Of a stretch of 64,000 bases of DNA, positions 34,224 through 56,505 are shown in pieces. Below the pieces are notes generated by a model that worked only from the letters and a program-made list of their open reading frames with translations, had not been told where the DNA came from and searched no databases. Every line of letters starts with the position of its first letter. Position 1 is the stretch's first letter. Made by a program: the position numbers and the translations under genes. Location: the IMG/VR virus record IMGVR_UViG_3300028048_000042. One strand, written 5' to 3'. Source of the DNA: a virus (taxonomy: Duplodnaviria; Caudoviricetes).

Positions 34224-34484
34224 ATGAAGTTTAAATCACATGGAAACACTTTTTTTTCAAATTGGTATGCATTTGAAATCACTGACAATAATCAAAAAAT
34301 AGATAATGTAGTTTTCAAAATGTCTCCCTATACAAATGAAAGGCAAATTTGCATTTATGATGAATACGCTAAATGTAAATATCTTTTTCTGATTAAAGAC
34401 GATACAATTCTTGCGTATGAATCCAATGATATATTAAATATTAAAGAAATGAAACAATTGTTGTCACGATTTTTTGGAGTATGA
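34224..34484 (+). CDS. RxxG[VI]-COOH family protein
   Basis: ends KQLLSRFFGV*. Confidence 0.75.
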   Translation: MKFKSHGNTFFSNWYAFEITDNNQKIDNVVFKMSPYTNERQICIYDEYAKCKYLFLIKDDTILAYESNDILNIKEMKQLLSRFFGV

Positions 34485-34487
34485 AAG

Positions 34488-34733
34488 ATGAATATACATT
34501 TTGTTTTACAAAAAACTGTTATGGAAGGTGTTGATTACCAAGAACCAAAAAAAAGAGTAGGTTGTATAGGATATATTTTTACAACAAGTAATATATCTAA
34601 AAAATTTGTTTTTCGTAGCTATACTGATGGCACACAAACGATGCATAAATTAGGTGGAATTTTATACAAACCAATAGACTTTATGAAAGTTGAATACCTA
34701 AGAAAATTAATGCAAAGATTTGATGGAGTTTGA
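34488..34733 (+). CDS. RxxG[VI]-COOH family protein
   Basis: ends RKLMQRFDGV*. Confidence 0.75.
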   Translation: MNIHFVLQKTVMEGVDYQEPKKRVGCIGYIFTTSNISKKFVFRSYTDGTQTMHKLGGILYKPIDFMKVEYLRKLMQRFDGV

Positions 34734-34751
34734 TTATAAAGGAGTAATGAA

Positions 34752-34916
34752 ATGAATAATAAAAACGTGAGTGGAAAAAGAGACACAAAATTGTGCAAAA
34801 GCATAAAAGAACATAACAAAACTTGTGACAGTTGTCCTGCTTTAGTAAGAAAATCAGAAGGAAAATGTTGTGTTTTTGACTATACTCTAATTAAAGCTGA
34901 TAAAGATTTGAGATAA
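34752..34916 (+). CDS. small Cys-rich protein
   Basis: AGGAG RBS; 54 aa. Confidence 0.55.
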   Translation: MNNKNVSGKRDTKLCKSIKEHNKTCDSCPALVRKSEGKCCVFDYTLIKADKDLR

Positions 34917-34949
34917 AATTATGTTGGCATATAATCCAAATGAAAAAGG

Positions 34950-35195
34950 ATGGCAAAAGTGAAATTAGAAGAAGCGATTAAGCGTTGCGAAGAATTAGCT
35001 GACAGTAAATATAATACATATAGTAGAGAATGTAGACAATTGGCAGAATGGCTAAAAAAGTTAAAACAATATATTTTAGAATGTAAAAAAGGAAGTGGAA
35101 TAAAATGTTGGATTTTGTTTGCGGTATTTTTGTTGGCATTTTCTTTGGACTTATTCTGCTTAATGATGAAATTAACATTGGATGAAAGAAAATGA
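34950..35195 (+). CDS. small protein with C-terminal TM helix
   Basis: ORF; hydrophobic C-terminus. Confidence 0.6.
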   Translation: MAKVKLEEAIKRCEELADSKYNTYSRECRQLAEWLKKLKQYILECKKGSGIKCWILFAVFLLAFSLDLFCLMMKLTLDERK

Positions 35196-35201
35196 GGATT
35201 A

Positions 35202-35501
35202 ATGAATATGAAAGATGAATTGATTGTCAAGAATGCAATTACTAATGCAATAGCCAAAACACACAAAGAACTTTCAAATTTAAGATTGGGAATTTTGGCA
35301 TTTATTGATGAATATAACAATTTTGGATTTTCAATTTATGGCGGTTTGAATAGTGGATTAGGCAAAAAAGAAATTTACAACAGAGAAATTCTTGCTTTTG
35401 AAGAATATATGAAGTCGTGCAATATCAATATTGTTTTGGTTTTGCGTGAAGATGATTTAGATGATGATACATTTTACCTTGAATACAAAGTAGTAGAATG
35501 A
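35202..35501 (+). CDS. hypothetical protein
   Basis: GAGG RBS. Confidence 0.65.
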   Translation: MNMKDELIVKNAITNAIAKTHKELSNLRLGILAFIDEYNNFGFSIYGGLNSGLGKKEIYNREILAFEEYMKSCNINIVLVLREDDLDDDTFYLEYKVVE

Positions 35502-35529
35502 GAAAATAGTAAAGGAAGGATGAATAAAT

Positions 35530-36315
35530 ATGTTTAAAGATTCTTTAGGCGATAGAATGAAAGGTTATTATGAAAATGCTTATCGCAATTATTTAACAAG
35601 ACGAACTCCTGTAATTATCCGTATTGACGGTAAAGCTTTTCACACTTTTACAAGAGGTCTTGAAAAACCATATGATATGATTTTTAAGAAAGCTATGTGG
35701 AAAACAACGGTTTATTTGTGTGAAAATATTCAAAATGCAAGAATTGGCTATGTGCAATCTGATGAAATTTCCATTCTTTTGATTGACTATAATAAATTTA
35801 CAACCTCTGCATGGTTTGATAATAATATTCAGAAAATGTGTTCTGTGTCAGCAAGTATGGCAACGATGGCTTTCAATAAATATTTTATGGAAGAACTCTA
35901 TGAATATTTAGAAACAAATGATATGTCTGATGAAAAGTTTGCTATTTATGAAAGCAAACTTAATGGTGCTATGTTTGATTCGCGAGTTTTCAATCTCCCT
36001 GAGTCGGAGGTTTGTAATTATTTCATTTGGCGACAAAATGATGCTACACGTAATTCTATTGAACTTTTGGGTAGAGAATACTTTTCTGCAAAAGAATTGC
36101 ATAAGGTTAATTGCAATCAAATTCAAGACAAACTCATGACAGAGAAAAATGTTAATTGGAATGATTGTCCAACATTTTTTAAGCGTGGTGCGTGTGCATA
36201 TAAGAAAGTCAATGAAGAAGAAAATTGTTCGGCAGTAAGTATTGATTTGGAAATTCCAATTTTTACACAAGATAGAAATTTCATTGAGAAACATTTGGAA
36301 ATTGTAGACAAATAA
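35530..36315 (+). CDS. thg1: tRNA(His) guanylyltransferase Thg1-like 3'-5' polymerase
   Basis: RIDGKAFHTFT, YVQSDEIS, FDSRVF, YFIWRQNDATRNS, KRG motifs. Confidence 0.93.
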   Translation: MFKDSLGDRMKGYYENAYRNYLTRRTPVIIRIDGKAFHTFTRGLEKPYDMIFKKAMWKTTVYLCENIQNARIGYVQSDEISILLIDYNKFTTSAWFDNNIQKMCSVSASMATMAFNKYFMEELYEYLETNDMSDEKFAIYESKLNGAMFDSRVFNLPESEVCNYFIWRQNDATRNSIELLGREYFSAKELHKVNCNQIQDKLMTEKNVNWNDCPTFFKRGACAYKKVNEEENCSAVSIDLEIPIFTQDRNFIEKHLEIVDK

Positions 36316-38091: not shown

Positions 38092-38976
38092 ATGGACAAT
38101 TCACACTATTGGAGAAGAAAAGAAGAAATGAAAAAGAAAGCATTAGAACATACAAAAGAAATGTCTAATACTTATTCAGAAGAAATTCTAAACTCCATTA
38201 ATAACACTACACTCTATTTTATGAATGGAAACAATGTAAAGAAAAGTCATCATGAAGGAGATAGTATTATCACCGAAACTGTATATCCTTTGGTTAAGAA
38301 TGCTATGGTAAGACCAATTCCTAAACATCATGTATTACAGTCTACTTCTACACAAGCAATCTTTGATGAATTAAGTAGTAGTGGCAAAGTTTGTGTATTG
38401 AACTTTGCTAGTTATAAGAATGCAGGAGGTGAATTCCTTAAAGGCAGTACAGCACAAGAAGAATGTTTATGCCATGATTCATTCCTGTATAATGTATTAA
38501 AAGAATATCCTAAGTATTATGAATGGAATAAACAACATTTAAATAAGGGAATGTATCTCCATAGAGCATTATATACAAAAGATGTAATTTTTGAATGTGA
38601 AGGTAAAAAAGCGTTGGTAGATGTAATTACTTGTGCTAGTCCAAACTATTCCGTAGCATTAAAATATGGCGGTTTTACGGCAAAAGAAAATCTAACCTGC
38701 CTAAAGCAGAGGGCGAAATTTATTCATGCCATAATTGAGGACAATCCACAGATTGATGTAGTCATTTTAGGAGCTTGGGGATGTGGCGTATTCAAACAAC
38801 AGCCCAAACAAATGGCAGAGATTTGGAAAAGATTGCCTTTTGACTCTAATCTGACCATTATCCACGCTATCCCTGACAGACGAACTTTTAACGATTTTGA
38901 AAATGTGCTTCATAAGCATAAGCAAATGGGAAATAGTTTTTACTCAAATTCGTTTTACTTAAATCAAATTGAGTAA
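38092..38976 (+). CDS. TIGR02452/DUF2263-type macrodomain (bacterial PARG-like ADP-ribose glycohydrolase)
   Basis: VLNFAS..NAGGEF..GSTAQEE.LC signature; LGAWGCGVF loop. Confidence 0.9.
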   Translation: MDNSHYWRRKEEMKKKALEHTKEMSNTYSEEILNSINNTTLYFMNGNNVKKSHHEGDSIITETVYPLVKNAMVRPIPKHHVLQSTSTQAIFDELSSSGKVCVLNFASYKNAGGEFLKGSTAQEECLCHDSFLYNVLKEYPKYYEWNKQHLNKGMYLHRALYTKDVIFECEGKKALVDVITCASPNYSVALKYGGFTAKENLTCLKQRAKFIHAIIEDNPQIDVVILGAWGCGVFKQQPKQMAEIWKRLPFDSNLTIIHAIPDRRTFNDFENVLHKHKQMGNSFYSNSFYLNQIE

Positions 38977-39480: not shown

Positions 39481-39554
39481 AATATAGATTAAAAAGAATA
39501 TTGACAAAATGTGAATGATAATGATATAATTGTATAGAAAGGAGTTGTAGATAT

Positions 39555-39836
39555 ATGATAAAATTCTGCAATGAAATGCAATATGACAATTCATTCCTTG
39601 AAGATAAGTCGTGTTTTTTCGCATTTTTTTATTCTGAAGGCGAAAGATATTTTTGCAGATTACCATCAGGCATAGATGTAAACAGCATTGACTACTTAAA
39701 ACTATACCGTGTTTGGCATCCTTCAAAATCTGTTGGACAAAATAATATAGGATGGAACTTTGAAGAATTGAAAGAAAACAAAACACCACAACAAAAAATG
39801 TATAGAAAATTGTATAGTAGGATTTTGGGATTATGA
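39555..39836 (+). CDS. RxxG[VI]-COOH family protein
   Basis: ends KLYSRILGL*. Confidence 0.75.
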   Translation: MIKFCNEMQYDNSFLEDKSCFFAFFYSEGERYFCRLPSGIDVNSIDYLKLYRVWHPSKSVGQNNIGWNFEELKENKTPQQKMYRKLYSRILGL

Positions 39837-40294
39837 ATGACAGTAAAGAATATCTGCAAAACAAAATGTTTGAGAAAATAACAGCAATTTCCATTATTGA
39901 GAAATTCTATTTTTTTAGGTTTGGTCATGTAGAAGCACATTGGTTATTTGGTGACAAAAAGAAACTTAACAACCTTCTTTTTAAAAAAAATATAAAAATT
40001 TCTTATTTTGAAGAGAGAGGAAATGTAGTTACCTTCCACGGCAAAGAGGAGTATTGTATCTATTATGAAGTAATTCACAAAAAAGAACATATTTTCCGAG
40101 CTGTATTTGTTTGCGGAGAAAATAAACTTTTTCTTACTGATGATAATAGAAGCGGTTATGTATTTTGCCCAAATGATAATGAACATCAAGATACTTATAA
40201 ATTTTTGGCATCAAAAGCAGAATTGATTTCTTGTTCTGTTGATGACCTAATTAAAATTTTACGTTCGGTAATGTTTCGTACAATAGGCACTTAG
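39833..40294 (+). CDS. RxxG[VI]-COOH family protein (variant end)
   Basis: ends SVMFRTIGT*. Confidence 0.7.
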   Translation: MNDSKEYLQNKMFEKITAISIIEKFYFFRFGHVEAHWLFGDKKKLNNLLFKKNIKISYFEERGNVVTFHGKEEYCIYYEVIHKKEHIFRAVFVCGENKLFLTDDNRSGYVFCPNDNEHQDTYKFLASKAELISCSVDDLIKILRSVMFRTIGT

Positions 40295-40306
40295 GAGAGA
40301 TTTTGC

Positions 40307-40720
40307 ATGAAAACATTTGGTAGATTTGATAAAGATTATGGGGAATACGAAATTCATATAAAGTGTATATTTCGAGATGATTCTATACCTGCAACATTTG
40401 GGACTTTAACTTTGAGAGAGTTTTTTGCCCCACCATCGACTCTAAATTACATTTCTGTGGCAATCGTAGCAAAAAAATCTCTAAGCGACAAAATGAATTA
40501 CTTTGAACGCACAACACAAAAGCAAAGAAATTCAAATTTATGTTATTATACAGATAGTGAATTTGGTATTTTTAGCATAACAAATGCGTTAAAAACAATA
40601 CTAATGGCAGGGTACAATTTAAGTTATTATCCGCAAATACGCAAAAATTTAAAACAAGGATTAGAACTCGTTTTAAAAGATTTAAAAGAAAATTATGTAC
40701 CTAGAAAGATTGGAGTATAA
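40307..40720 (+). CDS. RxxG[VI]-COOH family protein
   Basis: ends YVPRKIGV*. Confidence 0.7.
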   Translation: MKTFGRFDKDYGEYEIHIKCIFRDDSIPATFGTLTLREFFAPPSTLNYISVAIVAKKSLSDKMNYFERTTQKQRNSNLCYYTDSEFGIFSITNALKTILMAGYNLSYYPQIRKNLKQGLELVLKDLKENYVPRKIGV

Positions 40721-40723
40721 AAA

Positions 40724-41512
40724 ATGATTTTTTTTATTTCTGACACACATTTTTATCATGATAATATAATTAAATATTGTAATCGTCCTTTTCGCAATGT
40801 AGAAGAAATGAACGAAACCATAATTGAAAATTGGAATTCGGTAGTAAAACCTACTGATGTAGTGTATCATTTGGGCGATTTTACAACTGCTGATTATATC
40901 CCTAATATTAAATTTAAAGACAGATACATTGTAACAGCTAGGAATCTGTTGTCAAGGTTAAATGGAAAAAAAATTTTAATTCGTGGTAATCATGATTTAA
41001 GCAAAACAGTTTGTTTGGAATGTGGATGGGATAGGGTTGAAACTGAAGTCAATGAGAGAGGTATGGTATTAAGTCACAAACCTAAGGAATATATAAACCT
41101 TGTAAATGTTCATGGTCATATTCATAATCAAAAACCATTTTGTTATTTAGATGAAAATGGTAAGGTTCGGTTTAATGTTAGCGTTGATGTAACATCTTTC
41201 AAACCTGTATCAATTGAACAAATTGAGAATGCGTATATTAACAAAATTTCTGAAGTATACCAAAACGAAAAAATCGTTAGTAGTGAAATTCATTATGGTA
41301 AATTTTTCCAATTTATCCATGATAAAAAATTTGATATTCTTGTAGTATTGAAATTTACCAATAATTACAGTTTAGAAATTTACAAAACACGAAGTCAATA
41401 TGTAATAAAATGTAATGGCATAGAAATGCATATAATAAGAGTAGATTTAAATGATTTAAAAAAGTTCCCTCAGTTTTTGAAGGATTTAATGATAAGATAT
41501 GGAGTGATTTAA
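40724..41512 (+). CDS. calcineurin-like metallophosphoesterase fused to a C-terminal RxxG-like module
   Basis: SDTHF, HLGDF, GNHD, LSH, HGHIH motifs; extra ~90 aa ending KDLMIRYGVI*. Confidence 0.88.
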   Translation: MIFFISDTHFYHDNIIKYCNRPFRNVEEMNETIIENWNSVVKPTDVVYHLGDFTTADYIPNIKFKDRYIVTARNLLSRLNGKKILIRGNHDLSKTVCLECGWDRVETEVNERGMVLSHKPKEYINLVNVHGHIHNQKPFCYLDENGKVRFNVSVDVTSFKPVSIEQIENAYINKISEVYQNEKIVSSEIHYGKFFQFIHDKKFDILVVLKFTNNYSLEIYKTRSQYVIKCNGIEMHIIRVDLNDLKKFPQFLKDLMIRYGVI

Positions 41513-41513
41513 T

Positions 41514-41876
41514 ATGGCATATACATATCCATTTATGTGCACAACTATTTCTGCAAAAGCAGAATATTTTGCAAGGTCTGTTGAAACACAATCAATATTT
41601 AATGAATTTAAAGTATTGAAAAAAGAAAAAAAATATAAGGTTCAAAATTTTTGTGGATATAGGATTATAGAAGTTGACCCATATTTTTCACTCTTTATAA
41701 AAAAAGACAAAACAATTTGCGGATTTTTATCCAATTATGCAGATAATCCGTTTATGTATAACATTAAATTTACTCACAAAACAAATTTTATATATGACAA
41801 TTTTACAAAAGCTAAATATAAACCTAAAGAAAAAGAGTTTATTAAACATTTGTGTGCAAGATTGAAAGGTATATGA
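41514..41876 (+). CDS. RxxG[VI]-COOH family protein
   Basis: ends HLCARLKGI*. Confidence 0.78.
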   Translation: MAYTYPFMCTTISAKAEYFARSVETQSIFNEFKVLKKEKKYKVQNFCGYRIIEVDPYFSLFIKKDKTICGFLSNYADNPFMYNIKFTHKTNFIYDNFTKAKYKPKEKEFIKHLCARLKGI

Positions 41877-41877
41877 A

Positions 41878-42249
41878 ATGGTTAATATAACAGAAGGACT
41901 CAATCGAATAAATAGTTGTAAATATAATTTTTTCTTTAATGGCTTGAAAATTTCCCAACAAAAAAATGGTATTGTTATTGTTCGAAATTTCAATCCATTA
42001 AGTATTAGAAATAATTGTTCTTGGCATGACCAATCGCCATACATCTATACAAGTTTTTTTCTTGAAAAAGATGGAATTTTTAGTTATAACGACCATATAA
42101 GAGACAGGCAAGTAAAAATAAACTTATTTGGATATAAACAAAAATGGTGGAATAAATATTGGTTTTCATTCGAGTTGAATTTTACATTTTTCGAAAGCAC
42201 AATGGTTTATTTTGCAAAAAAATTGTATAGCCGTTTATATGGAGTGTAA
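41878..42249 (+). CDS. RxxG[VI]-COOH family protein
   Basis: ends KLYSRLYGV*. Confidence 0.78.
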   Translation: MVNITEGLNRINSCKYNFFFNGLKISQQKNGIVIVRNFNPLSIRNNCSWHDQSPYIYTSFFLEKDGIFSYNDHIRDRQVKINLFGYKQKWWNKYWFSFELNFTFFESTMVYFAKKLYSRLYGV

Positions 42250-42252
42250 AAT

Positions 42253-42519
42253 ATGCGTATTTCTACAACAAAAATTTTTAACAACCTTTGTCGAGTTTTT
42301 GCTTATGGAGAATCAGACAATTACATATTTACTTTTGATTTAGACGATAGTGATTTTTGCGAAATAATTATTAACAATTATAAAATTACAATTGCAAGAG
42401 AAGATGGAATGAACAGTTATATTGCTTGGAATGAAATTAAGAATTTAACAAATTTCTATCCCATATCTCATATTAAGAAAGAACCTCGAATTATGTTTTC
42501 TAGGTGCTTTGGAGTCTGA
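42253..42519 (+). CDS. RxxG[VI]-COOH family protein
   Basis: ends IMFSRCFGV*. Confidence 0.78.
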   Translation: MRISTTKIFNNLCRVFAYGESDNYIFTFDLDDSDFCEIIINNYKITIAREDGMNSYIAWNEIKNLTNFYPISHIKKEPRIMFSRCFGV

Positions 42520-42594
42520 TTTTTCAGGCTCTTTTTTGTTGACAAAAGTTGCAAAATCGTATAAAATAAAAGTAATGAATAGGAGGTAATTAAA

Positions 42595-42864
42595 ATGATA
42601 GAAAGTGTATTTATAGATATGCCACATATATACTTGAAAAAAGACGCTTTTTATTTTGGTAAGACAAACATTAGAAAGCTTGGCGTGCGCATCTCGCTTG
42701 AAGATTATGCTAATTTCTATGTATCAAGGTGGAGAATGTTTCGTGGTGAACAGTATTCTCGTAATAATGGTTTGGTTTTCGAAACATTGTATAATCAAAT
42801 TGGTGAATATTACCAATACACTAAGGAAGCAAAAATTTTAATGGGAAGGTTGGCAGGTATATGA
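42595..42864 (+). CDS. RxxG[VI]-COOH family protein
   Basis: ends ILMGRLAGI*; own promoter and AGGAGG RBS. Confidence 0.8.
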   Translation: MIESVFIDMPHIYLKKDAFYFGKTNIRKLGVRISLEDYANFYVSRWRMFRGEQYSRNNGLVFETLYNQIGEYYQYTKEAKILMGRLAGI

Positions 42865-43048
42865 TAATTGACATCCTCCTCCACCTTTTTAAGTGGGGGA
42901 TTCCTACTTCTCAGACCGTAGCGTATGTGATTTCATCACATGAGGTATGGCGTAGCCATACCTTTTTACGTCTTACACAATCTCCATAGGCTTTCCGTAC
43001 CTTCGGTACGCTGATTCCGCAAGCCCTGCGGTACAGTTTTTGTATGGT
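42848..43048 (-). ncRNA. TnpB omegaRNA (right-end RNA) copy 1; scaffold ends GGATGTCAA at 42868, predicted guide TTATCATATACCTGCCAACC
   Basis: homologous to 51367-51540 with compensatory hairpin changes; right-end hairpin CCCCCAC...GTGG.GG. Confidence 0.8.
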
Positions 43049-44161: not shown

Positions 44162-44265
44162 TTTATTTCACCTCCTTTAAAGGATATTGACAAATTAAAA
44201 TATTTGTGTTAATATTAGTATATACCTAAAAGAGAAAAATGTCAAAAAGTGGAGGGGGTCTTTAT

Positions 44266-44526: not shown

Positions 44527-44527
44527 T

Positions 44528-44772: not shown

Positions 44773-44824
44773 AACAAATAAGATATATATAACACTTGAC
44801 ACAAGTAGAACGGTAGGGGGAAAC

Positions 44825-45094: not shown

Positions 45095-45100
45095 TAAGCA

Positions 45101-46026: not shown

Positions 46027-46031
46027 AAAAA

Positions 46032-46803: not shown

Positions 46804-46804
46804 A

Positions 46805-47053: not shown

Positions 47054-47055
47054 AT

Positions 47056-47370: not shown

Positions 47371-47427
47371 TCCAATTTAGATGTAAAATTACAACTAACA
47401 GAATGTTTAAATTGAGGGAAATATAAA

Positions 47428-47817: not shown

Positions 47818-47831
47818 GGAGATATTTTGAA

Positions 47832-48146
47832 ATGGAAAAAAGACTTTTGGTATTTAAAACACTTGAAAATCAAAGTGTAGAGGTTCGTGTTACACATGGC
47901 AGTGGAATATTTTGTAAAGGTGGCGGTAGAGAAATATTAGATTTCGACATGACCGTTACACACTTCTATTGTAGTTGTTGGAAAATAGAAAACGAATACT
48001 GTATCAGTTTTGGTATGAATGATTTTTTTGCATTACAACGTGGCGATTTTGTCCATAGTGATTATAACAACATAATTCCACTAACAGCATTCAAAGCTAT
48101 GCCAAAATCCATAAAAAATTTACAACTTAGAATTTGGGGAGTCTAA
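47832..48146 (+). CDS. RxxG[VI]-COOH family protein
   Basis: ends NLQLRIWGV*. Confidence 0.78.
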   Translation: MEKRLLVFKTLENQSVEVRVTHGSGIFCKGGGREILDFDMTVTHFYCSCWKIENEYCISFGMNDFFALQRGDFVHSDYNNIIPLTAFKAMPKSIKNLQLRIWGV

Positions 48147-48303
48147 CTAAGTTTAAAAACTGTTGACAAAATAACAAAAATGAAGTACAATTATCAAAGA
48201 TAAATAATTGTACTTTTTTAAATGTTAGTGAAGATTCATCTGTAAAAGTGGGAGAATGTCACCTAAAATACCAATTGTAATTAAAATTGTAGGAGTATAA
48301 AAA

Positions 48304-48564
48304 ATGTTAAAAGCTAAATATTACTTTTCTCAAACATATCAAGCACTTGTCATTGATGATATAACTTACACATCATCAGGCTCTTTTTCTAATCAACTTC
48401 TATCTATGATGATTAATTTTGAACAAATTAATTTTCGCTATAAAGAAATGTTTTCTGATAGTTGTAAAATCAACTCTAATTTTGAAGATTTAAAAAAATT
48501 ACGTTTTACAAAAAACGAAAAAAGACTTATTTTGCGAAGCATTAGTAGGTTAAAAGGCGTTTAA
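48304..48564 (+). CDS. RxxG[VI]-COOH family protein
   Basis: ends RSISRLKGV*. Confidence 0.78.
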   Translation: MLKAKYYFSQTYQALVIDDITYTSSGSFSNQLLSMMINFEQINFRYKEMFSDSCKINSNFEDLKKLRFTKNEKRLILRSISRLKGV

Positions 48565-48565
48565 A

Positions 48566-48844
48566 ATGGAAAATAAGGCTAAATATGATAAATGGCAATT
48601 TTGGGACAATAAAATTGCTTATCCTCCAAACATAATTGGAGATTCACCTATAAAAAATATGATGGTTAGAAACACACAAGATAAACAAAGCTTATTTTGT
48701 CATATAACATTTTCCAAACCATTAGAAACAACATTTGCCTTTATCAATAACAATAAAATAAAAAGTTACAATAATAATGATTTGGTAATGATGAAAGAAA
48801 ACAAAAAATTTGCACTGCTGATTGCACGAACTGTGGGGATGTAA
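48566..48844 (+). CDS. RxxG[VI]-COOH family protein
   Basis: ends LLIARTVGM*. Confidence 0.78.
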   Translation: MENKAKYDKWQFWDNKIAYPPNIIGDSPIKNMMVRNTQDKQSLFCHITFSKPLETTFAFINNNKIKSYNNNDLVMMKENKKFALLIARTVGM

Positions 48845-48847
48845 AAA

Positions 48848-49189
48848 ATGAAACGAGCACAATTAACAAAAGAGGAAGTTAAAGAATTAACAAATAATCA
48901 ACACAAAGTCTCATTTGAAACAAGAAGAGCAAATACAGGAAAAATAACGTATACTATATTTTCCGTTTTCTTCAATGAGAATAAAAATTTTCCAAAAATG
49001 CTTTTTAAATTTTTTTACACACAAAAAGATTTGCAAAATTTTATGTATGTTATTGCATTATATGACTTTAAGAATGAGAAAGAATATAATCTACAAGATT
49101 TGCAAAAAATTGGATTGGGAAGTAAAAGGTATTCACCCCTATTTTGTTCTGTTCTAAGAAAATATGTATTGAGAATTGATGGTGTGTAG
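48848..49189 (+). CDS. RxxG[VI]-COOH family protein
   Basis: ends KYVLRIDGV*. Confidence 0.78.
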   Translation: MKRAQLTKEEVKELTNNQHKVSFETRRANTGKITYTIFSVFFNENKNFPKMLFKFFYTQKDLQNFMYVIALYDFKNEKEYNLQDLQKIGLGSKRYSPLFCSVLRKYVLRIDGV

Positions 49190-49256
49190 ATACATTGACA
49201 ACGATTGATATTTTTGATATAATTTAGTCGTTGTCAATGCAAAGAGGTGATGCACT

Positions 49257-49529
49257 ATGATTTTCCGAAATGAAGTAAGAAAAGCAAACGTAGTAAGTAA
49301 CGATATGTACATACTGATTAACGAAGTATCAGAAGGAACAACAAGAATCGTATTGAAATTGTTGATAATGAACAACGATAATTATAAAAAAATTAGCTGT
49401 TCAAACAAATTGGTTGAAGTGTTTGGTGTAAGAAATAAAAGATATAAAATTATAGAAAATCACGATTTATCAGTAATGAAAAGACATAAAAGTTTTAGGA
49501 TTGTTTTTTCAAGAGTATATGGGGTGTAA
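49257..49529 (+). CDS. RxxG[VI]-COOH family protein
   Basis: ends IVFSRVYGV*. Confidence 0.78.
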   Translation: MIFRNEVRKANVVSNDMYILINEVSEGTTRIVLKLLIMNNDNYKKISCSNKLVEVFGVRNKRYKIIENHDLSVMKRHKSFRIVFSRVYGV

Positions 49530-49532
49530 GTT

Positions 49533-49799
49533 ATGAGTGTTACAACACTAACCTATTCAATAAAACCTTGTAAGTTTTTCAAAGAAATTAAATTTTCAAT
49601 ATTTGGTTGCAAAGCTTATGGTGTGAATTATAACAACGAGGAAACGTTGATTTTGTGTGCAACACAGGAATCATTGTTTCTTGAATGGTCGCCAAAAAAA
49701 AAGGATAAATTGGCTAAGAATTATCCACTGAACCATCAAGATTTAGAATATTTAAACCATAAATTTAGTGGATTTGTATCTCGAATAATAGGAGTTTAA
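49533..49799 (+). CDS. RxxG[VI]-COOH family protein
   Basis: ends GFVSRIIGV*. Confidence 0.78.
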   Translation: MSVTTLTYSIKPCKFFKEIKFSIFGCKAYGVNYNNEETLILCATQESLFLEWSPKKKDKLAKNYPLNHQDLEYLNHKFSGFVSRIIGV

Positions 49800-49801
49800 A
49801 A

Positions 49802-50182
49802 ATGCAAAATGTATTTACCATATGCGGTCAACCTACACATAATTCCAATTCGGTAACATGTTTCAATCCGCATTCTTTTTTGAAAGGGATTGGATTACCT
49901 TATAGTTTTTTAGGTTATAAAAAATGTTATTGTTATTTGAAAATTAGCTCTCCCTTTGTGACAACAGTTTTCGATAAACAAGGAGAAATAAGCGATTTTG
50001 ACTGTCATGGAATTGTTGCATCTATTAATGAGAATGGAAAATATGATTTCTTTTGTATTGATAGTTACACTAAACCAATTTGGGACGAAAGTGGAGAATG
50101 TTTCGGTTGTAGACCTGTCATTGATAATGTAGGTAGCCAAGAAAAATTCTCAAAACTTTTTCAAAGAATTGTAGGAGTATAA
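49802..50182 (+). CDS. RxxG[VI]-COOH family protein
   Basis: ends KLFQRIVGV*. Confidence 0.78.
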   Translation: MQNVFTICGQPTHNSNSVTCFNPHSFLKGIGLPYSFLGYKKCYCYLKISSPFVTTVFDKQGEISDFDCHGIVASINENGKYDFFCIDSYTKPIWDESGECFGCRPVIDNVGSQEKFSKLFQRIVGV

Positions 50183-50253
50183 AAAATGAAAATAACGTTT
50201 CCTGTAATTTTCCATAAATAATAATACAATTAAATCAAAGGAGGTGAAACAAA

Positions 50254-51366
50254 ATGCTGAAAGCATACAAATTTAGATTATATCCAACCGAAGAACAAAA
50301 ACAATTTTTCAATCAGTGCATTGGAAATGCACGTTTCGTTTACAATCATTGTTTAGGTCTTAAAAAAGACCTTTGGAAAAATGAACAAAAAACTATTTCC
50401 ACGAAAGAACTTTCAAAACATATCACTGATTTGAAAAAATATCAAGAATATGAATGGTTGAAAAAGAGCGATTCTATCGCTCTTCAACAGTCACTTCGTG
50501 ACCTTGATTTGGCGTTTCAAAGATTTTTCAAAAAACAAGCTAAATATCCAAGATTTCATAACAAACATAAGAAAAATTCTTATAGAACAATCAATCAGAA
50601 TAACAAAATACGTTTAGAAAATGGTAAGTTACACTTGCCTAAACTTAAAACGTTTGTAAAAATCAGACAAAGCAGATTTTTCAATGGAACAATCAAAAAT
50701 GCTACGGTATCAAAGACACCATCAAATAAGTATTTTGTTTCACTTCTTGTCGAAGAAGAAGATGTTTTTGGTGTTTCACAAGTCAACGAAGTTGGCATTG
50801 ATTTAGGTATTAAAGATTTTGCTATCTTGTCCAACGGTACGAAGTACCACATAGATACCAAGCATATTAAAAAACTTGAAAAGAAGTTAAAAAGATTACA
50901 AAAACAATTTTCAAGAACAATGCCTAAATCTCAAAACCATGAAAAAAGAAGAATTGAATTAGCTATTCAATATGAAAAAATTACCAATTTCAGAAATGAT
51001 TTCTTTCACAAACTTTCAAGAAAGCTAGTAGATGAAAACCAAGTCATAGCTATTGAGAGTTTAAAAATTAAAAATATGGTAAAAAATCATAAATTAGCTA
51101 AATCCATTCAAGATTGTTCATGGAACAAATTTATAACTATGCTTGAATACAAAGCAAAATGGCAATGCAATTGCCAAGTAGTGAAGGTAGATACCTTCTT
51201 TGCTAGTTCTCAAACTTGTTCAAATTGTGGATATAAAAATCCAAAAGTAAAAGATTTGTCAATCAGAGAATGGGAATGTCTGAAATGTCATGCTACGCAT
51301 GACCGAGACATAAATGCAAGCATAAATATCTTAAATGAAGGTAAAAGGCTACTTAACGTAGCCTAA
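50254..51366 (+). CDS. tnpB: IS200/IS605-family RNA-guided endonuclease TnpB, copy 2
   Basis: close paralog of 43049-44161; RuvC D/E/D intact; Zn finger CSNC/CLKC. Confidence 0.95.
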
Positions 51367-51560
51367 ACCATATAAAAAACTGTACCGCAGGGCTTGCGGA
51401 ATCAGTATAAAACTAAGCCTATGGAGATTGTGTAAGACGTAAAAAAGCATGGCTACGTCATGCCCTATGTGATGAAATCACATATGCTACGGTCTGAGAA
51501 GTAGGAATCCCCCACCTCTACAGGTGGGGGAGGATGTCAAATTGTAGAATTTGGGGGATA
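51367..51560 (+). ncRNA. TnpB omegaRNA copy 2; scaffold ends GGATGTCAA at 51540, predicted guide ATTGTAGAATTTGGGGGATA
   Basis: conserved with copy 1; right-end hairpin CCCCCACCT-ctac-AGGTGGGGG. Confidence 0.8.
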
Positions 51561-51565
51561 TAAAA

Positions 51566-51838
51566 ATGAAATTTAATTGTTCTATTGAAAATTGTTTATT
51601 CTTAGGACAACCATCATGTGTGATTACAATTGAACTGTATAAAACATTCGCTACATTTTGTTTTGTTTGTACCGAGGAACATGGTATATTTTTACAATAT
51701 CAGAGATATGACGATTATTATCCAAAATTAATTAACCAAGAAACAATGAAAAAAATTGCTCTTGGGAAAGATAAAAGATATAAAGTAATCTCAAAAGAAC
51801 TTATGAATTTTTGTTATTTGCGAATTTTTGGAGCTTGA
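51566..51838 (+). CDS. RxxG[VI]-COOH family protein
   Basis: ends FCYLRIFGA*. Confidence 0.78.
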   Translation: MKFNCSIENCLFLGQPSCVITIELYKTFATFCFVCTEEHGIFLQYQRYDDYYPKLINQETMKKIALGKDKRYKVISKELMNFCYLRIFGA

Positions 51839-51841
51839 AAA

Positions 51842-52111
51842 ATGAAAATTAAGTTTAGCGATTATTTTCAAAGTTGGAGCACAAGTACAAAGGGGCAAAT
51901 ATTCATCAATAAATTGACAAAAGATAAACAAACTATGCAATTAGAACTAAGAGTTGGTTTTGCCATAAAAGTGAGTCAATGCTTTGATATACGAATTATT
52001 TACGGCAAAAAACCAATTCATAAAATTATGAATAAACAAAAATTGTTATACCAAAAATCATACAAATACAGACAATACAGATTAATTTTTTTAAGAATTT
52101 TTGGAGTTTGA
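51842..52111 (+). CDS. RxxG[VI]-COOH family protein
   Basis: ends LIFLRIFGV*. Confidence 0.78.
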   Translation: MKIKFSDYFQSWSTSTKGQIFINKLTKDKQTMQLELRVGFAIKVSQCFDIRIIYGKKPIHKIMNKQKLLYQKSYKYRQYRLIFLRIFGV

Positions 52112-52114
52112 AAA

Positions 52115-52423
52115 ATGTTAATTGTAGATAACTTGCCGCCTATACAATTTGGCAAATGGAAAAAATCAACTGCATTTGAAAATTTTTATTGTGATGTAAA
52201 ATTGGGAAATCATGCGAAATATAGATTGTTTTTGCAATCTTGTTATCAAAAACCACATATATTGCTTATTATCCCTTGCCGTGATGGAGAACAAACAAAT
52301 ATTAATTTTAGCAAAAAGGCAAAATATGGGAAAAAAGAATTATCAACATATGATTTTCTTCATAATAAATATACAATTGTTCAAGAAATGAGTAAAATAT
52401 ATTTGCGAACGGTAGGTGTATAA
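52115..52423 (+). CDS. RxxG[VI]-COOH family protein
   Basis: ends KIYLRTVGV*. Confidence 0.78.
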   Translation: MLIVDNLPPIQFGKWKKSTAFENFYCDVKLGNHAKYRLFLQSCYQKPHILLIIPCRDGEQTNINFSKKAKYGKKELSTYDFLHNKYTIVQEMSKIYLRTVGV

Positions 52424-52425
52424 CA

Positions 52426-52743
52426 ATGTTCTCGTTAAAAGAAAGTATGTACTATTGGAAAAGCAAAAGAAAACTAAAATCATTTCATAAATCAGTCACA
52501 ACAACAAGCATAAAAACAATCATTACTTTTCACTGTTTGCATGGTGGAAAATATGCTGACCATATAGACCTTATAAAACATAATCGCAATGCAAATAAGT
52601 CTTGGTCGATTTCTTTGACCGATTATCAAAATGGCGAAATTATTGATTTTGATTTTTTCATTAAAGATGAAAAAGAACGAAATATACAAATGTTAGCAAA
52701 TAAAAAATATCATTATTTTTTGTCGAGGTTGGTAGGTGTTTGA
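52426..52743 (+). CDS. RxxG[VI]-COOH family protein, paralog of 55660-55998
   Basis: ends RNIQMLANKKYHYFLSRLVGV*. Confidence 0.8.
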   Translation: MFSLKESMYYWKSKRKLKSFHKSVTTTSIKTIITFHCLHGGKYADHIDLIKHNRNANKSWSISLTDYQNGEIIDFDFFIKDEKERNIQMLANKKYHYFLSRLVGV

Positions 52744-52744
52744 A

Positions 52745-53008
52745 ATGGCATTCCCACACGAAGAATTGAAAACCTTTTCATTCCCACAAAAAATGGTTTT
52801 TGAAATATCAACTACATATTTTTATTTTAGCGGAAATGTAAAAATGAATGGACGTAAATTTCTTCTTGAAGAACAAACAGGAATGGATAACGAACCTGCA
52901 AGGCGTTTCTTGTATAACCATCAAACATTTGAATACGTTTTGCATGAAGATTTAATGGAAAAAAGTAAACCTTACAATTTTCTTTTCCAAAGAATAATAG
53001 GAGTTTGA
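52745..53008 (+). CDS. RxxG[VI]-COOH family protein
   Basis: ends FLFQRIIGV*. Confidence 0.78.
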   Translation: MAFPHEELKTFSFPQKMVFEISTTYFYFSGNVKMNGRKFLLEEQTGMDNEPARRFLYNHQTFEYVLHEDLMEKSKPYNFLFQRIIGV

Positions 53009-53010
53009 TT

Positions 53011-53262
53011 ATGAAATTTGTTGGTGCATTAAATTCAGATTATACCACCCATAAAAGTTTCATCATAAGGTTGCATGGTCTTGGATTTGAATTCAATCTT
53101 GTAAAACAAACGAACAGCATTGCTGTAATTGGTGGGCTTGTTAATTTTGGGGGATATAAACATTTTGAAAATGGCAAAAACTATCTTACATTAAGGAATC
53201 TTAAATGTAAACGCAAGTATAAAGAATTTAGTTTGTTGTATTTAAGAATTTTTGGAGCATAA
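53011..53262 (+). CDS. RxxG[VI]-COOH family protein
   Basis: ends LLYLRIFGA*. Confidence 0.78.
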   Translation: MKFVGALNSDYTTHKSFIIRLHGLGFEFNLVKQTNSIAVIGGLVNFGGYKHFENGKNYLTLRNLKCKRKYKEFSLLYLRIFGA

Positions 53263-53264
53263 CA

Positions 53265-53552
53265 ATGATGCAAAAATTTAAAGTTCAAACGAAACATTAT
53301 CCTATAACGAAACAAATGGAAATAATTATCCATTGGACAAATTCATCAAGCAACCTTGACGCATTTGACACAAGTAATAAATTTCGCATTATTATATATC
53401 GAGGAAAAGTATTTGTGCAGGTAAGAGCGTTTACAAATCTAAAAAAAACATATGATTTGAAACAAATTCAGAAAATCGGATTAAATGACAAACGATTTTT
53501 GGTTGATACAAAAAAATTCAATTTTTGTTATTTAAGGATGATGGGAGTATAA
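53265..53552 (+). CDS. RxxG[VI]-COOH family protein
   Basis: ends FCYLRMMGV*. Confidence 0.78.
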   Translation: MMQKFKVQTKHYPITKQMEIIIHWTNSSSNLDAFDTSNKFRIIIYRGKVFVQVRAFTNLKKTYDLKQIQKIGLNDKRFLVDTKKFNFCYLRMMGV

Positions 53553-53680
53553 CAGAATACATTTAAAATTCTATTGACAAAAAACCTTCAATACGTTATA
53601 ATACTATTGAAGGTTTTTGAATGTGATATTGTAATTACAATGAACATTCTCACAAATAAAATCTAGCAAGCAGAATGTGA

Positions 53681-54910
53681 GTGATTAAAATGACGATTGA
53701 AGATTTCGCTAAAACAATTCAGTCTATGGGGGGAACTGCTTATATTGTAGGTGGTTTTGTCCGTGACGAAATAATGAATATTTCTTCCCATGATTGCGAT
53801 TTAATGATAACAGGCATTAAAGAGGATGATTTTGTCAAGAAATTTCCTAATGCTAATCCAACAGGATTAGCATTCCCTGTTTTTCGTTTATTTATTGACG
53901 GTGAAGAAATGGAAGTAGCTTTTGCTCGTAAAGAACGTAAAGTGTCTGAAGGTCACAATGGTTTTGAAGTTTTCTTTTCTCCTGAGGTTACAGTTGAAGA
54001 AGATTTGGAACGCAGAGATATTCGTATGAATTCTATTGCAAAAAACATATTAACAAAAGAAATTATTGACCCCTTTAATGGTGTAAAGGATATTCAAAAT
54101 AAAATTATCAATATTACTTCTAAAAAACATTTCTCTGAAGACCCATTAAGAGTTTTACGAGTAGCACGACAGGCTTCCAAATTCAATTTTGATATTAGTG
54201 AAGAAACAAAACAAATCCTAACCCAAACGGCAGATAGTTTAGTAGAATTACCACTAGAACGCATTTTTGGCGAAATGGAAAAAGCATTAGAAACAAAAAA
54301 GCCATCTACGTTTTTCAGAATTTTGAAAGAGGTTGGTGCGTTAAAATTTGCTTTTCCTTGGTTAAACAAATTGATTGGTCAAACACAATCAAAACAATGG
54401 CATCCTGAGGGAGATGCTTTTGAACATTCAATGTTGGTTTTGGATAAAGTATCAATGCAAACCAAGGATGTGAAATTAAGGTTTTGCGCTTTATACCATG
54501 ATATTGGAAAAGCAGTAACACCGAAAGAAACCCTTCCAAAACATCTTGGTCATGATTTTGAAGGGTTAAAAATCATTGACAGTTTACCGCTTGTAATTCC
54601 GAAGGATTGGCGTAACAGAGCAAGAGCAGTGGCAGAATTACACATGAAAGTAAGAACAATAAAAAAACCTGTAAAGAAAGTACAGTTATTTAATAGGTTA
54701 AAACAAGCAGGTCTTTCCGTTGATGAATTTAAAATTATCGTTAGTGCTGACAGTATTAACGGTGATGAAGATGTACCTGCTTGGCTTACACAGGAAACTT
54801 TTGATAAAGTATTTTTGCCAATTGAAATTCCTAACAATTTAAATCCTAAAAAAGATGGAACAAAAATCAAAGAATTTGTTTTATCTGTTCGCAGTAAAAG
54901 AATTAGCTAA
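53681..54910 (+). CDS. cca: CCA-adding tRNA nucleotidyltransferase with HD domain (multifunctional Cca-like)
   Basis: VGGFVRD...DCD, EVAFARKE, DLERRDIRMNS, FSEDPLRVLR, ERIFGE, WHPEGD..H, ALYHDIGK. Confidence 0.92.
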   Translation: MIKMTIEDFAKTIQSMGGTAYIVGGFVRDEIMNISSHDCDLMITGIKEDDFVKKFPNANPTGLAFPVFRLFIDGEEMEVAFARKERKVSEGHNGFEVFFSPEVTVEEDLERRDIRMNSIAKNILTKEIIDPFNGVKDIQNKIINITSKKHFSEDPLRVLRVARQASKFNFDISEETKQILTQTADSLVELPLERIFGEMEKALETKKPSTFFRILKEVGALKFAFPWLNKLIGQTQSKQWHPEGDAFEHSMLVLDKVSMQTKDVKLRFCALYHDIGKAVTPKETLPKHLGHDFEGLKIIDSLPLVIPKDWRNRARAVAELHMKVRTIKKPVKKVQLFNRLKQAGLSVDEFKIIVSADSINGDEDVPAWLTQETFDKVFLPIEIPNNLNPKKDGTKIKEFVLSVRSKRIS

Positions 54911-54972
54911 ACATAGTATTTGTTGCAAAGGTAAGGAAAATGTCAAAATAAAACTATTAGGAGCACAAATTT

Positions 54973-55410
54973 ATGAATTTATCTAAAATTAATTTTTGGG
55001 ACAAAACAGATAATACAACCATTTTTGACGAAGTAATTTTTAAAATTCATCAATACTATGAAGAAACAGAAACAATAAAGTGGCGAGATTTTGCACAACT
55101 TAAAACAAAGATTTGCAAATTTTTATTTTTATATCACAAATATTTCAAACCACATTGTAAATGGAAATTCAGCACCGAACAACAATATTACACAAACATT
55201 ATATTAAATGATACAATTTGCTTTGAACTTTGTTATATGACTGCCGATGTTTTGCTTGACCCTTCCAAATTAAAAAAACCCAACAATGGACTTAGATTTT
55301 CTGTAAAACTCAAAAATAAACAAATGAATTATGTCTACTTTAACTCTTGGGGCAACCGCTTCTTAAACAAAGAATATAAACTAATTCTTTTAAGAGGGGA
55401 TGGCGTATGA
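54973..55410 (+). CDS. RxxG[VI]-COOH family protein
   Basis: ends LILLRGDGV*. Confidence 0.75.
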   Translation: MNLSKINFWDKTDNTTIFDEVIFKIHQYYEETETIKWRDFAQLKTKICKFLFLYHKYFKPHCKWKFSTEQQYYTNIILNDTICFELCYMTADVLLDPSKLKKPNNGLRFSVKLKNKQMNYVYFNSWGNRFLNKEYKLILLRGDGV

Positions 55411-55637
55411 TGAAAGAAAGATTCAAATTCAGACACAATGTTTACGAAATGGTTGCATATTCTCCATTCACACAAATCACCATAAATATAAACGCATACA
55501 AAGTTACATGGCATACGAAAAAACTAACAAAAAATTTCAATTTACGCAAAATGAATGTATTGTATAAAAATCCGTTTATCTCTGATTGTGAAGTAAAAAC
55601 TATATCAATTATTGTAGGACGGATGTGGGGGATTTAA
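55407..55637 (+). CDS. RxxG[VI]-COOH family protein
   Basis: ends IIVGRMWGI*. Confidence 0.78.
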   Translation: MMKERFKFRHNVYEMVAYSPFTQITININAYKVTWHTKKLTKNFNLRKMNVLYKNPFISDCEVKTISIIVGRMWGI

Positions 55638-55659
55638 AAAAATGTTTGGGTGAAAAATT

Positions 55660-55998
55660 ATGAAGAAAGAATATTATGAAAAAAATATAAGGTATTGGAA
55701 AACAAGAAAAAAAATTAAAAATTTTCGCATAGCTTCTCTAAAACACTTTCCGAAACCAATCTTTTCAACACCACTCAGTCGGCAGCATATGTTCTTTTTG
55801 TGTGGACAAGCATATGATTCTTTTGAAATCTTGCCACCTACATCCGATATAAAAGAATTTAGATTTGTTTTGAATGATTACAAGAACAATGATTATTTTG
55901 TGTTCTATTTTACGCCAAAATCGGAAAAATGCAGAGATATACAAATGCTTATTAACAAAAAATATAATCATTTGTTGTCGCGTTTTTTGGGGGTATAA
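55660..55998 (+). CDS. RxxG[VI]-COOH family protein, paralog of 52426-52743
   Basis: ends RDIQMLINKKYNHLLSRFLGV*. Confidence 0.8.
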   Translation: MKKEYYEKNIRYWKTRKKIKNFRIASLKHFPKPIFSTPLSRQHMFFLCGQAYDSFEILPPTSDIKEFRFVLNDYKNNDYFVFYFTPKSEKCRDIQMLINKKYNHLLSRFLGV

Positions 55999-56000
55999 AA

Positions 56001-56267
56001 ATGAATATTTTTCTTGAAGATATAAAAAAAGTAAAATTTAGTTCCGTGGAAACTACAACTTTAGGTCACATTGAAGGTAGACTAACTTGCAGTTCTGAAA
56101 TTCTTGTAAATGACCTCCATTTTGTACACACACAATTAAAACTGCCTATCAATATATACAATAATAATTATAAAAGGTGGTATGATTTACACCACATGTA
56201 TTCACTAAAATTCTTAAAGCAATCAGAAAAAGCAAGACATATATATTCTCGTATATATGGAGTATGA
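56001..56267 (+). CDS. RxxG[VI]-COOH family protein
   Basis: ends HIYSRIYGV*. Confidence 0.78.
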   Translation: MNIFLEDIKKVKFSSVETTTLGHIEGRLTCSSEILVNDLHFVHTQLKLPINIYNNNYKRWYDLHHMYSLKFLKQSEKARHIYSRIYGV

Positions 56268-56271
56268 AAAC

Positions 56272-56505
56272 ATGAAAAAAAAAGATTTCCATTTTTGTAA
56301 GAGTTTTATTGACCCACAATTGTTCTATTTAAGTACAGACGTTATACGTTTAGGAATGTATGATGATGCTTTTTTAAACAGTGCTCATTATTTTCACAAC
56401 GATAAACAATTATACAAATTAAATCAATTTCGTGAATTTTCAATTGTTAGCGAGAAACAGAATCGTTCATTCCGATTAATTATAAGTAGACTTGAAGGGA
56501 TATAA
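56272..56505 (+). CDS. RxxG[VI]-COOH family protein (last of array)
   Basis: ends LIISRLEGI*. Confidence 0.78.
   Translation: MKKKDFHFCKSFIDPQLFYLSTDVIRLGMYDDAFLNSAHYFHNDKQLYKLNQFREFSIVSEKQNRSFRLIISRLEGI

Follow-up and report, generated by a model that had tools for sequence, protein, structure and literature searches.

A clade-wide array of small, hypervariable phage proteins sharing a 13-residue C-terminal tail, a candidate functional handle

We analysed a 64,000-nucleotide (nt) stretch (hereinafter the window) of IMG/VR virus record IMGVR_UViG_3300028048_000042 (Duplodnaviria; Caudoviricetes), in which a long run of small genes encodes proteins of dissimilar sequence that share one C-terminal ending, typically R-x-x-G-[V/I]. 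The window has a G+C content of 28-34%, carries nearly all of its genes on the plus strand and contains no transfer RNA (tRNA) genes; overall it resembles the early part of a large phage genome. Thirty-nine intact plus-strand open reading frames (ORFs) of 76-153 amino acids (aa) terminate in R-x-x-G-[V/I/L/M/A/T]-stop, two at 34224-34733 and 37 at 39555-56505. A further copy is frameshifted and another, whose ending is a variant, is fused to an enzyme, which brings the total to 41, in agreement with the approximate number in an earlier, letters-only reading of this DNA (hereinafter the original prediction). With the doubtful outlier at 60515-60883, 40 plus-strand ORFs fit the R-x-x-G-[VILMAT] ending in total. 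All small genes of the array bear the tail except two encoding TnpB, those for a CCA-adding enzyme and a metallophosphoesterase, and the frameshifted copy, which reads as an ORF at 44528-44749 (Table 1).

Table 1 Members of the array, promoters, elements within or beside it, and genes of the marker family. Positions refer to the window unless a contig is named.
Position	Strand	Feature	Length (aa)	C-terminal residues	Remarks
34224-34484	+	Member	86	LLSRFFGV
34488-34733	+	Member	81	LMQRFDGV
39501-39530	+	Sigma-70-type promoter (12/12)			Head of main array
39555-39836	+	Member	93	LYSRILGL	Ortholog in L001
39833-40294	+	Member	153	VMFRTIGT
40307-40720	+	Member	137	YVPRKIGV
40724-41512	+	Metallophosphoesterase (~170 aa; Pfam) plus beta-rich ~90-aa extension		KKFPQFLKDLMIRYGVI	Variant tail
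41514-41876	+	Member	120	LCARLKGI
41878-42249	+	Member	123	LYSRLYGV
42253-42519	+	Member	88	MFSRCFGV	Operon-final; terminator-like hairpin 42511-42532 overlaps last codons
42539-42567	+	Sigma-70-type promoter (11/12)
42595-42864	+	Member	89	LMGRLAGI	GGT ATA
43049-44161	-	TnpB (IS605 OrfB family)			Interrupts array
44187		Consensus promoter			Before array block
44266-44526	+	Member	86	LISRMFGV	From ATG 44266; ORF open from 44239
44528-44776	+	Member, frameshifted			1-nt deletion in C-run truncates at 44749
44825-45094	+	Member	89	NISRMVGV	Tail of L001 ortholog lost to TnpB insertion
45101-45388	+	Member	95	IFCRLMGV
45389-45679	+	Member	96	LIGRAIGI	GGC ATT; operon-final
45687-45715	+	Sigma-70-type promoter (11/12)
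45730-46026	+	Member	98	EALRLIGV
46032-46292	+	Member	86	VFERMFGI
46292-46573	+	Member	93	ILNRSVGI
46570-46803	+	Member	77	IYSRIHGV
46793-47053	+	Member	86	IIARMLGV
47056-47370	+	Member	~104	LIQRLVGI	From GTG 47056; ORF open from 46987; GGC ATC
47428-47817	+	Member	129	LYSRYFGV
47832-48146	+	Member	104	LQLRIWGV	Operon-final
48163-48191	+	Sigma-70-type promoter (11/12)
48304-48564	+	Member	86	SISRLKGV
48566-48844	+	Member	92	LIARTVGM
48848-49189	+	Member	113	YVLRIDGV	GGT GTG; operon-final
49195-49223	+	Sigma-70-type promoter (12/12)
49257-49529	+	Member	90	VFSRVYGV
49533-49799	+	Member	88	FVSRIIGV
49802-50182	+	Member	126	LFQRIVGV
50254-51366	+	TnpB (IS605 OrfB family)			Second copy within array
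51551-51838	+	Member	95	CYLRIFGA
51842-52111	+	Member	89	IFLRIFGV	AlphaFold2-modelled copy
52115-52423	+	Member	102	IYLRTVGV
52426-52743	+	Member	105	FLSRLVGV	Paralogy to 55660-55998 detectable
52736-53008	+	Member	90	LFQRIIGV
53005-53262	+	Member	85	LYLRIFGA
53265-53552	+	Member	95	CYLRMMGV	Operon-final
53574-53602	+	Sigma-70-type promoter (12/12)			Upstream of CCA-adding enzyme gene and last members
54973-55410	+	Member	145	ILLRGDGV	Body related to 34224-34484
55407-55637	+	Member	76	IVGRMWGI
55660-55998	+	Member	112	LLSRFLGV	Paralog of 52426-52743
56001-56267	+	Member	88	IYSRIYGV
56257-56505	+	Member	82	IISRLEGI	Last gene of array
57970-59517	+	Conserved protein used as marker	515
60515-60883	+	Possible outlying member (membership uncertain)	122	NKFPKIKERGRRHGI	Downstream of marker gene
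L003: 4387-5985		Marker homolog			17 tail-ending genes on contig
L006: 10001-11506		Marker homolog			7 tail-ending genes on contig
L009: 2428-4029		Marker homolog			~15 tail-ending genes on contig
L010: 10001-11488		Marker homolog

The strict ending R-x-x-G-[V/I] is found in 0/87 ORFs between 1 and 34 kb, 2/11 between 34 and 39.5 kb and 32/48 between 39.5 and 56.6 kb, and in 0/176 minus-strand ORFs, compared with a composition-based expectation of 2.5e-4 per ORF. The tail array is confirmed as real and far above chance. As the original prediction had observed for the small ORFs at 0.5-31 kb, the tail is absent from all ~55 small genes at 500-31200.

The conserved unit spans 13 residues, K-x-Φ-(+)-x-L-Φ-S-R-Φ-Φ-G-V-COOH (Φ, hydrophobic; +, basic). 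Numbered back from the C-terminus, position -13 is Lys, -12 Glu or Lys, -11 hydrophobic in 90% of copies, -10 Arg, Lys or Ser and -9 variable, followed by Leu or Ile at -8, Tyr, Ile or Phe at -7 and Ser, Leu or Gln at -6. Arg at -5 and Gly at -2 are each present in 39/39 copies, with hydrophobic residues at -4 and -3 and a terminal Val or Ile, and every one of the 39 chains stops one residue after the Gly. Hydrophobic residues fall at -11, -8, -7, -4, -3 and -1 and basic residues at -13, -10 and -5, and the last 20 residues carry a net charge of +2.4. Projected on a helical wheel, the hydrophobic residues cluster on a single side bordered by R-5 at one edge and K/R-10 at the other, a spacing that fits a putative amphipathic helix whose hydrophobic face is flanked by basic residues. 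Pro, a common residue at helix starts, occurs at -12 to -20 in 11/39 copies. The R-x-x-G-V signature first noticed in these proteins is thus present, but the conserved unit is wider, a 13-residue basic amphipathic helix-like segment. An AlphaFold2 model of the 51842-52111 member, built from the paralog alignment (predicted local distance difference test score, pLDDT, 57), shows a beta-meander followed by two helices, one of them at residues 74-86 of 89. Tails have a hydrophobic moment of 0.37 and body windows one of 0.27 ± 0.14, a measure that did not discriminate when used as a test for a membrane helix.

The tail is clearly selected at the protein level, because all six Arg codons and all four Gly codons are used in background proportions. 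Arg-5 is encoded by AGA (18), AGG (8), CGT (6), CGA (5), CGC (1) and CGG (1), and Gly-2 by GGA (21), GGC (6), GGT (6) and GGG (6), in both cases close to the usage in the same genes; a check of synonymous codons at these two positions had been suggested with the original prediction, and its GGC and GGT examples at 45679, 47370 and 49189 are present as described. Overlap of a GGA-GTN ending with the Shine-Dalgarno sequence of the next gene, also raised there, is real but secondary. The stop codon usually lies 1-8 nt from the next start codon, and GGA encodes Gly-2 in 16/27 translationally coupled genes and 5/12 operon-final genes, compared with 42% of background Gly codons. This mild bias does not account for the motif, since 18/39 copies use GGC, GGT or GGG and 12 operon-final genes retain the ending. 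Operon-final copies followed by a new promoter, as had been reported, are borne out by the consensus promoters at 45687, 48163, 49195 and 53574.

Comparison with a close relative, L001 (88-95% nucleotide identity to the window), gives a ratio of nonsynonymous to synonymous change (pN/pS) of 0.33 for the bodies and 0.18 for the 20 C-terminal residues; the Arg, the Gly and the last residue are unchanged between the two sets of copies. With these ratios, the members are judged to be expressed, constrained proteins in which the tail is the most constrained part. Mixed codons, retention in operon-final genes and the lowest pN/pS in the tail all uphold the earlier proposal of protein-level selection. 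In the frameshifted copy, the tail KKLISRANGV can still be read in the +1 frame, and the L001 counterpart of this tail is intact; the TnpB element at 43-44 kb is missing from the same site in L001, where a TnpB copy elsewhere has removed the tail of one member. Close strains differ by gain and loss of copies through TnpB insertions and a frameshift.

Upstream of the tail, the proteins have little in common. The bodies are 60-140 aa long and beta-rich; BLAST of members lacking the last 20 aa links only two pairs, and body-only jackhmmer leaves 29/39 as singletons, so that the bodies are indeed as unalignable as they had looked by eye. Shared features are limited to size (28/39 members at 81-105 aa), a composition rich in Phe, Tyr and Asn and poor in Glu and Ala, and an N-terminal [KR]-Φ-x-F motif in 9/39 members compared with 0/45 control ORFs. 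Apparently conserved Phe and Tyr columns in a MAFFT alignment of the bodies were dropped and are not claimed, because shuffled bodies yield comparable columns. The bodies are as likely to be one domain diverged past recognition as several unrelated small folds.

None of 38 members matched Pfam or PHROGs at E <= 0.001, nor did any of ten relatives from contig L003 match Pfam, and no described family thus corresponds to them; the original prediction likewise knew of no described phage system with this architecture. The members form a real, lineage-specific superfamily of small, probably early proteins in uncultured low-GC giant phages, which we name 'G-Φ-end' proteins. The proposed layout of variable heads on a constant tail is a fair description, the heads being hypervariable, but no F-box or PRANC-like domain accompanies it. 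A hidden Markov model of the tail, also suggested earlier, proved too weak for database-wide searches: leave-one-out scores of tail-only and full-length profiles reach only ~10 bits, and a profile search of large libraries for distant members was therefore judged pointless. A word-indexed search with alignment A1 returned only two near-identical proteins. In a wide structural search, the AlphaFold2 model (pLDDT 57) reached at most Z 3.4, a noise-level value; an ESM Atlas model of another member (pLDDT 0.39) gave a feature match to Tae4 whose score, 0.91, is in the chance range, and an ESM Atlas look-up for a member from the 281-kb relative described below returned nothing. Neither the array DNA nor a 796-aa neighbour protein had a match in the cultured-phage collection, and IMG/VR queried with the CCA-adding enzyme returned no relative.

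One copy appears within a larger protein. The metallophosphoesterase terminates in ...LMIRYGVI, and its homologs, in their thousands, align with no more than the first 63-65% of the protein and lack the ~90-aa extension; the extension looks like a family-type module fused to the enzyme. The 145-kb contig L002, source of the homolog P0004 of this enzyme, has no tail family.

Because the family profile is too weak, we used the conserved 515-aa protein encoded downstream of the array as a marker to find relatives. Homologs 26-30% identical to it occur on four phage contigs, each of which has an array of small genes ending in G-[V/I/L/M/A]-stop. In IMGVR_UViG_3300028886_000035 (hereinafter G001; 281,186 bp, 98% complete by CheckV, 15 tRNA genes), 25/40 ORFs in the 21 kb around the marker carry the G-Φ ending; genome-wide it is found in 38 of ~379 ORFs, 31 of which, within 138-168 kb, flank the marker and a NAD-dependent ligase on either side. 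The marker gene lies inside or adjoins G-Φ-end arrays in all five lineages, usually with a NAD-dependent DNA ligase next downstream. Its products are 500-533 aa long with a thrice-repeated motif (...KLRA[FY]IP.N...) and have no match in Pfam, PHROGs or PDB, the last searched by Foldseek with a model of pLDDT 63 and by profile. A complex prediction of the marker protein with a member scored 0.00 and gave no verdict, being neither support nor counter-evidence for binding.

All five lineages share the register Φ-11, basic-10, Y/Φ-7, G-2 and Φ-1, whereas Arg-5 is fixed in the lineage of the window only. G-Φ-COOH is probably the old core, because distant phages share the register without the invariant Arg, which appears specific to the lineage of the window. 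Bodies of 65-219 aa carry the same tail in the relatives, and no C-terminal extension past the residue after the Gly occurs in more than 100 copies from the five lineages. In L003, Gly codons are mixed and operon-final copies retain the ending. A 210-aa relative encoded at L003 1921-2553 combines an N-terminal hydrophobic, membrane-span-like segment with a G-L ending. In the window, the ORF at 60515-60883 shows a K-F-P start and a G-I end as in the tails of relatives.

The ~40 copies of the window are arranged in seven or so operons with strong host-type promoters ahead, a consensus TTGACA-17-TATAAT promoter preceding each array block (39501, 42539, 44187, 45687, 48163, 49195 and 53574). We read the array as early-expressed from these sigma-70-type promoters, which suggest that the host polymerase transcribes it early in infection and that its proteins act in the host cell. 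For this reason capsid loading, one of the roles first suggested for the tail, is unlikely, and a capsid-targeting signal was dropped as a candidate.

We favor the reading that the tail is a shared functional handle, recognised by a membrane or by a protein reader, with a probability of about 0.55-0.6. The odds divide roughly evenly between the two, so that MinD-like docking of the members on the membrane is put forward tentatively, and two other readings, recognition by a protein and a last helix with a structural role only, are about equally likely. If one mechanism had to be named it would be the membrane, because no other reading has a concrete sequence match. In this mechanism, the tail would fold into a short helix at the chain end, and every copy would dock on a common surface through the hydrophobic face of this helix, the fixed Arg and the Gly-Val carboxy-terminus, while the variable bodies perform different tasks there. 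The surface would be the inner face of the cytoplasmic membrane, on which members would be parked as peripheral proteins; a short basic amphipathic helix at a chain end is a standard route to becoming one.

The sequence match is to the membrane-targeting sequence (MTS) of MinD, which is KGFLKRLFGG in Escherichia coli (PMC5471200) and KGMMAKIKSFFGVRS in Bacillus subtilis (PMC13537761). Counted from the C-terminus, the spacing of the phage tail appears to match the E. coli MTS position for position: Φ-Φ-x-R-Φ-Φ-G-x-COOH, which agrees with the pattern Φ-Φ-x-[KR]-Φ-Φ-G near the end of E. coli and B. subtilis MinD, fits 27/39 copies. B. subtilis MinD has ...FFGV, as in the first member, LLSRFFGV, and in both systems the segment is short and basic, lies at the extreme C-terminus and has a residue pattern that fits an amphipathic helix. 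This likeness is a concrete alternative that needs no protein partner and was absent from the original prediction. The enzyme fusion at 40724-41512 and the L003 copy with the hydrophobic segment also count for a handle. The two systems differ in several respects. The phage tail sits on small hypervariable proteins and the MinD tail on a Walker-type ATPase; no deviant Walker A ATPase domain of the MinD/ParA family was detected by Pfam (0/38 members). The Arg and Gly are invariant and the chain ends one residue after the Gly in the phage proteins, whereas MinD tails vary. Tails of the phage relatives are less basic.

Several observations weigh against membrane docking. Arg-5 is never Lys in 39 copies, though -10 and -13 accept either residue. 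Were binding to lipid the only constraint, Lys should be acceptable at -5 as well; its absence points to a defined contact with a protein or to a salt bridge within the member. Tails of L003, L009 and G001 are less basic and do not exceed body segments in amphipathicity, so that a general membrane role is not obvious. The test of hydrophobic moment carries little weight; even the B. subtilis MTS reaches only 0.22-0.24. Narrow lengths, the F/Y/N-rich composition and the [KR]-Φ-x-F motif fit a single domain with the last helix in its fold, and the poor structure model (pLDDT 57) cannot tell an exposed helix from a packed one. No partner of the tail was identified.

Close behind membrane docking stands the possibility that a single protein reads the tail as a docking peptide. 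This reader, either a host hub or a phage protein, could be a protease or unfoldase, a chaperone, a modifying enzyme, a polymerase or a clamp. The members would then either act as adaptors delivering varied targets or all be handled themselves, for instance by timed degradation through a non-polar C-terminal degron. The strict conservation at the exact C-terminus of Arg-5 (in the lineage of the window), Gly-2 and the hydrophobic last residue, across more than 100 copies and five lineages, favors such a reader: since Arg is never exchanged for Lys and the chain invariably stops at the residue following the Gly, a binding pocket that senses both side chains and the free carboxylate is suggested. 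In its form, Φ-G-Φ-COOH is reminiscent of class II PDZ ligands and of the ends that bind clamps. The class II PDZ ligand pattern (Φ-x-Φ-COOH) agrees with the tail as a pattern match only, -1 being hydrophobic in 97% of copies and -3 in 82%. The 515-aa marker gene, in or beside the arrays of five lineages, also speaks for a reader. A precedent is phage T4, in which three different proteins, gp43, gp33 and gp55, have highly similar, interchangeable hydrophobic C-termini read by one partner, the gp45 clamp (PMC2988020). Here ~40 proteins rather than three are concerned, and the tail is basic, unlike the hydrophobic and acidic T4 tails. It also does not conform to a sliding-clamp motif (QL[SD]LF, QLxLxL or the T4 acidic type), with its invariant Arg-5 and Gly-2, basic character and Gln at -6 in only 4/39 copies. 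Searches of the 98%-complete G001 found one AAA protein but no ClpP, DnaN-type clamp, CbiA/MinD or ParA candidate and no match to PDZ_2, the sole PDZ model searched. Doubtful is the more specific proposal that the 13-residue ending is an address label for one partner (the membrane or a single host or phage machine) to which dozens of interchangeable, fast-evolving heads would drag host or defence targets together.

Of nearly the same standing as a reader is the possibility that the members are an ordinary, very fast-evolving paralogous domain family whose last helix is a conserved structural core that nothing reads. The Gly would act as a C-cap, the hydrophobic residue would fold back and the Arg would pair with the terminal carboxylate or the helix dipole. 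The narrow sizes, shared composition and N-terminal motif noted above suit this explanation, as do the few bodies that are still detectably related, and Pro at the helix start with Gly at the helix end is textbook capping. The enzyme fusion bears the whole ~90-aa module rather than the tail alone, very hydrophobic G001 tails such as ...YIIFYGI would require burial, and the AlphaFold2 model, of low confidence, is compact. But a purely structural helix seldom stays constant while its packing surroundings diverge beyond recognition, and the apparent conserved body columns are no better than shuffled controls. The 65-219-aa range of bodies in the relatives, all with the same tail, and the lack of any C-terminal extension in more than 100 copies are likewise difficult to accommodate.

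Far less probable is a processing or conjugation site, as entertained in the original prediction, with cleavage after the Gly (ubiquitin-like, Atg8-like or by a viral protease) or modification of the Arg, for example by ADP-ribosylation. The [F/Y]-G-x-COOH ending resembles Atg8-type ends, and the array is closely preceded by a gene for a PARG-type macrodomain (38092-38976), but Gly-Gly is absent, the segment before the Gly is spaced as a helix rather than extended, the low-confidence model (pLDDT 57; best structural match Z 3.4) is not a beta-grasp fold, and no gene for an E1-like enzyme, JAB domain or protease is seen in the window. The idea that the motif is a nucleotide by-product, a GGA-GTN-stop kept as the Shine-Dalgarno or coupling signal of the next gene, is rejected as contradicted by the codon data given above, by a hydrophobic pattern that reaches 13 residues upstream and by equally mixed codons in L003. 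Conservation of an integron-like or other recombination site and a RegB-type RNA site were dropped because codons vary freely; Arbitrium- or Phr-type peptides and precursors of ribosomally synthesized and post-translationally modified peptides were dropped because the proteins, of ~90 aa, show no signal peptide or leader logic.

The array is a very large, clade-wide and undescribed expansion with a 13-residue constant ending, and the family appears to lie outside every described one, resembling at most, by analogy, the MinD helix, the T4 docking tails and the constant-module adaptors of eukaryotic viruses. Poxviruses encode many paralogs per virus of the ankyrin-PRANC and F-box families, in which a variable target-binding part precedes a constant C-terminal module. 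The analogy drawn in the original prediction holds for this general arrangement, but the phage members lack an F-box, the PRANC domain (Pfam) and repeat-type heads, and their constant part is 13 residues rather than a domain. About one tenth of the genes of a 281-kb phage and ~40 genes of the window thus belong to a family undescribed in databases, with a short C-terminal peptide as its only constant feature. If the tail is an address label, read by a membrane or another reader, it would give a simple rule for the site of action of dozens of early phage proteins, as well as a portable experimental tag and a route into the host-takeover and anti-defence functions of uncultured giant phages; should the heads also act as proposed, the family would be a bacterial-virus counterpart of the F-box and PRANC adaptors. 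If the tail is a structural helix only, the family would be among the largest phage paralog expansions, yet ordinary in kind.

The array is interspersed with other genes. A Thg1-like tRNA-His guanylyltransferase (35530-36315), the microbial PARG-type macrodomain (38092-38976) and the CCA-adding enzyme with an HD domain (53681-54910) have the appearance of a set for tRNA repair and removal of ADP-ribose, as is typical of counter-defence regions; together with the phosphoesterase, they are of the repair and counter-defence kind carried by large phages. The two TnpB genes (Cas12f-like TNB) are oppositely oriented, and their flanking hairpins, at 43017-43031 and 51385-51399, match. Directly 3' of the last array gene, 56658-57422 encodes a 254-aa protein matching phrog_10081 (transposase, E 3e-61); this gene has a separate consensus promoter, at 56530. 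The ~55 small genes at 500-31200 each apparently have their own promoter and a G+C-rich hairpin directly after the stop codon, for example GGGGAAATTTCCCC, and include obvious paralog pairs (4291-4587 with 4611-4838, and 20810-21139 with 22293-22601).

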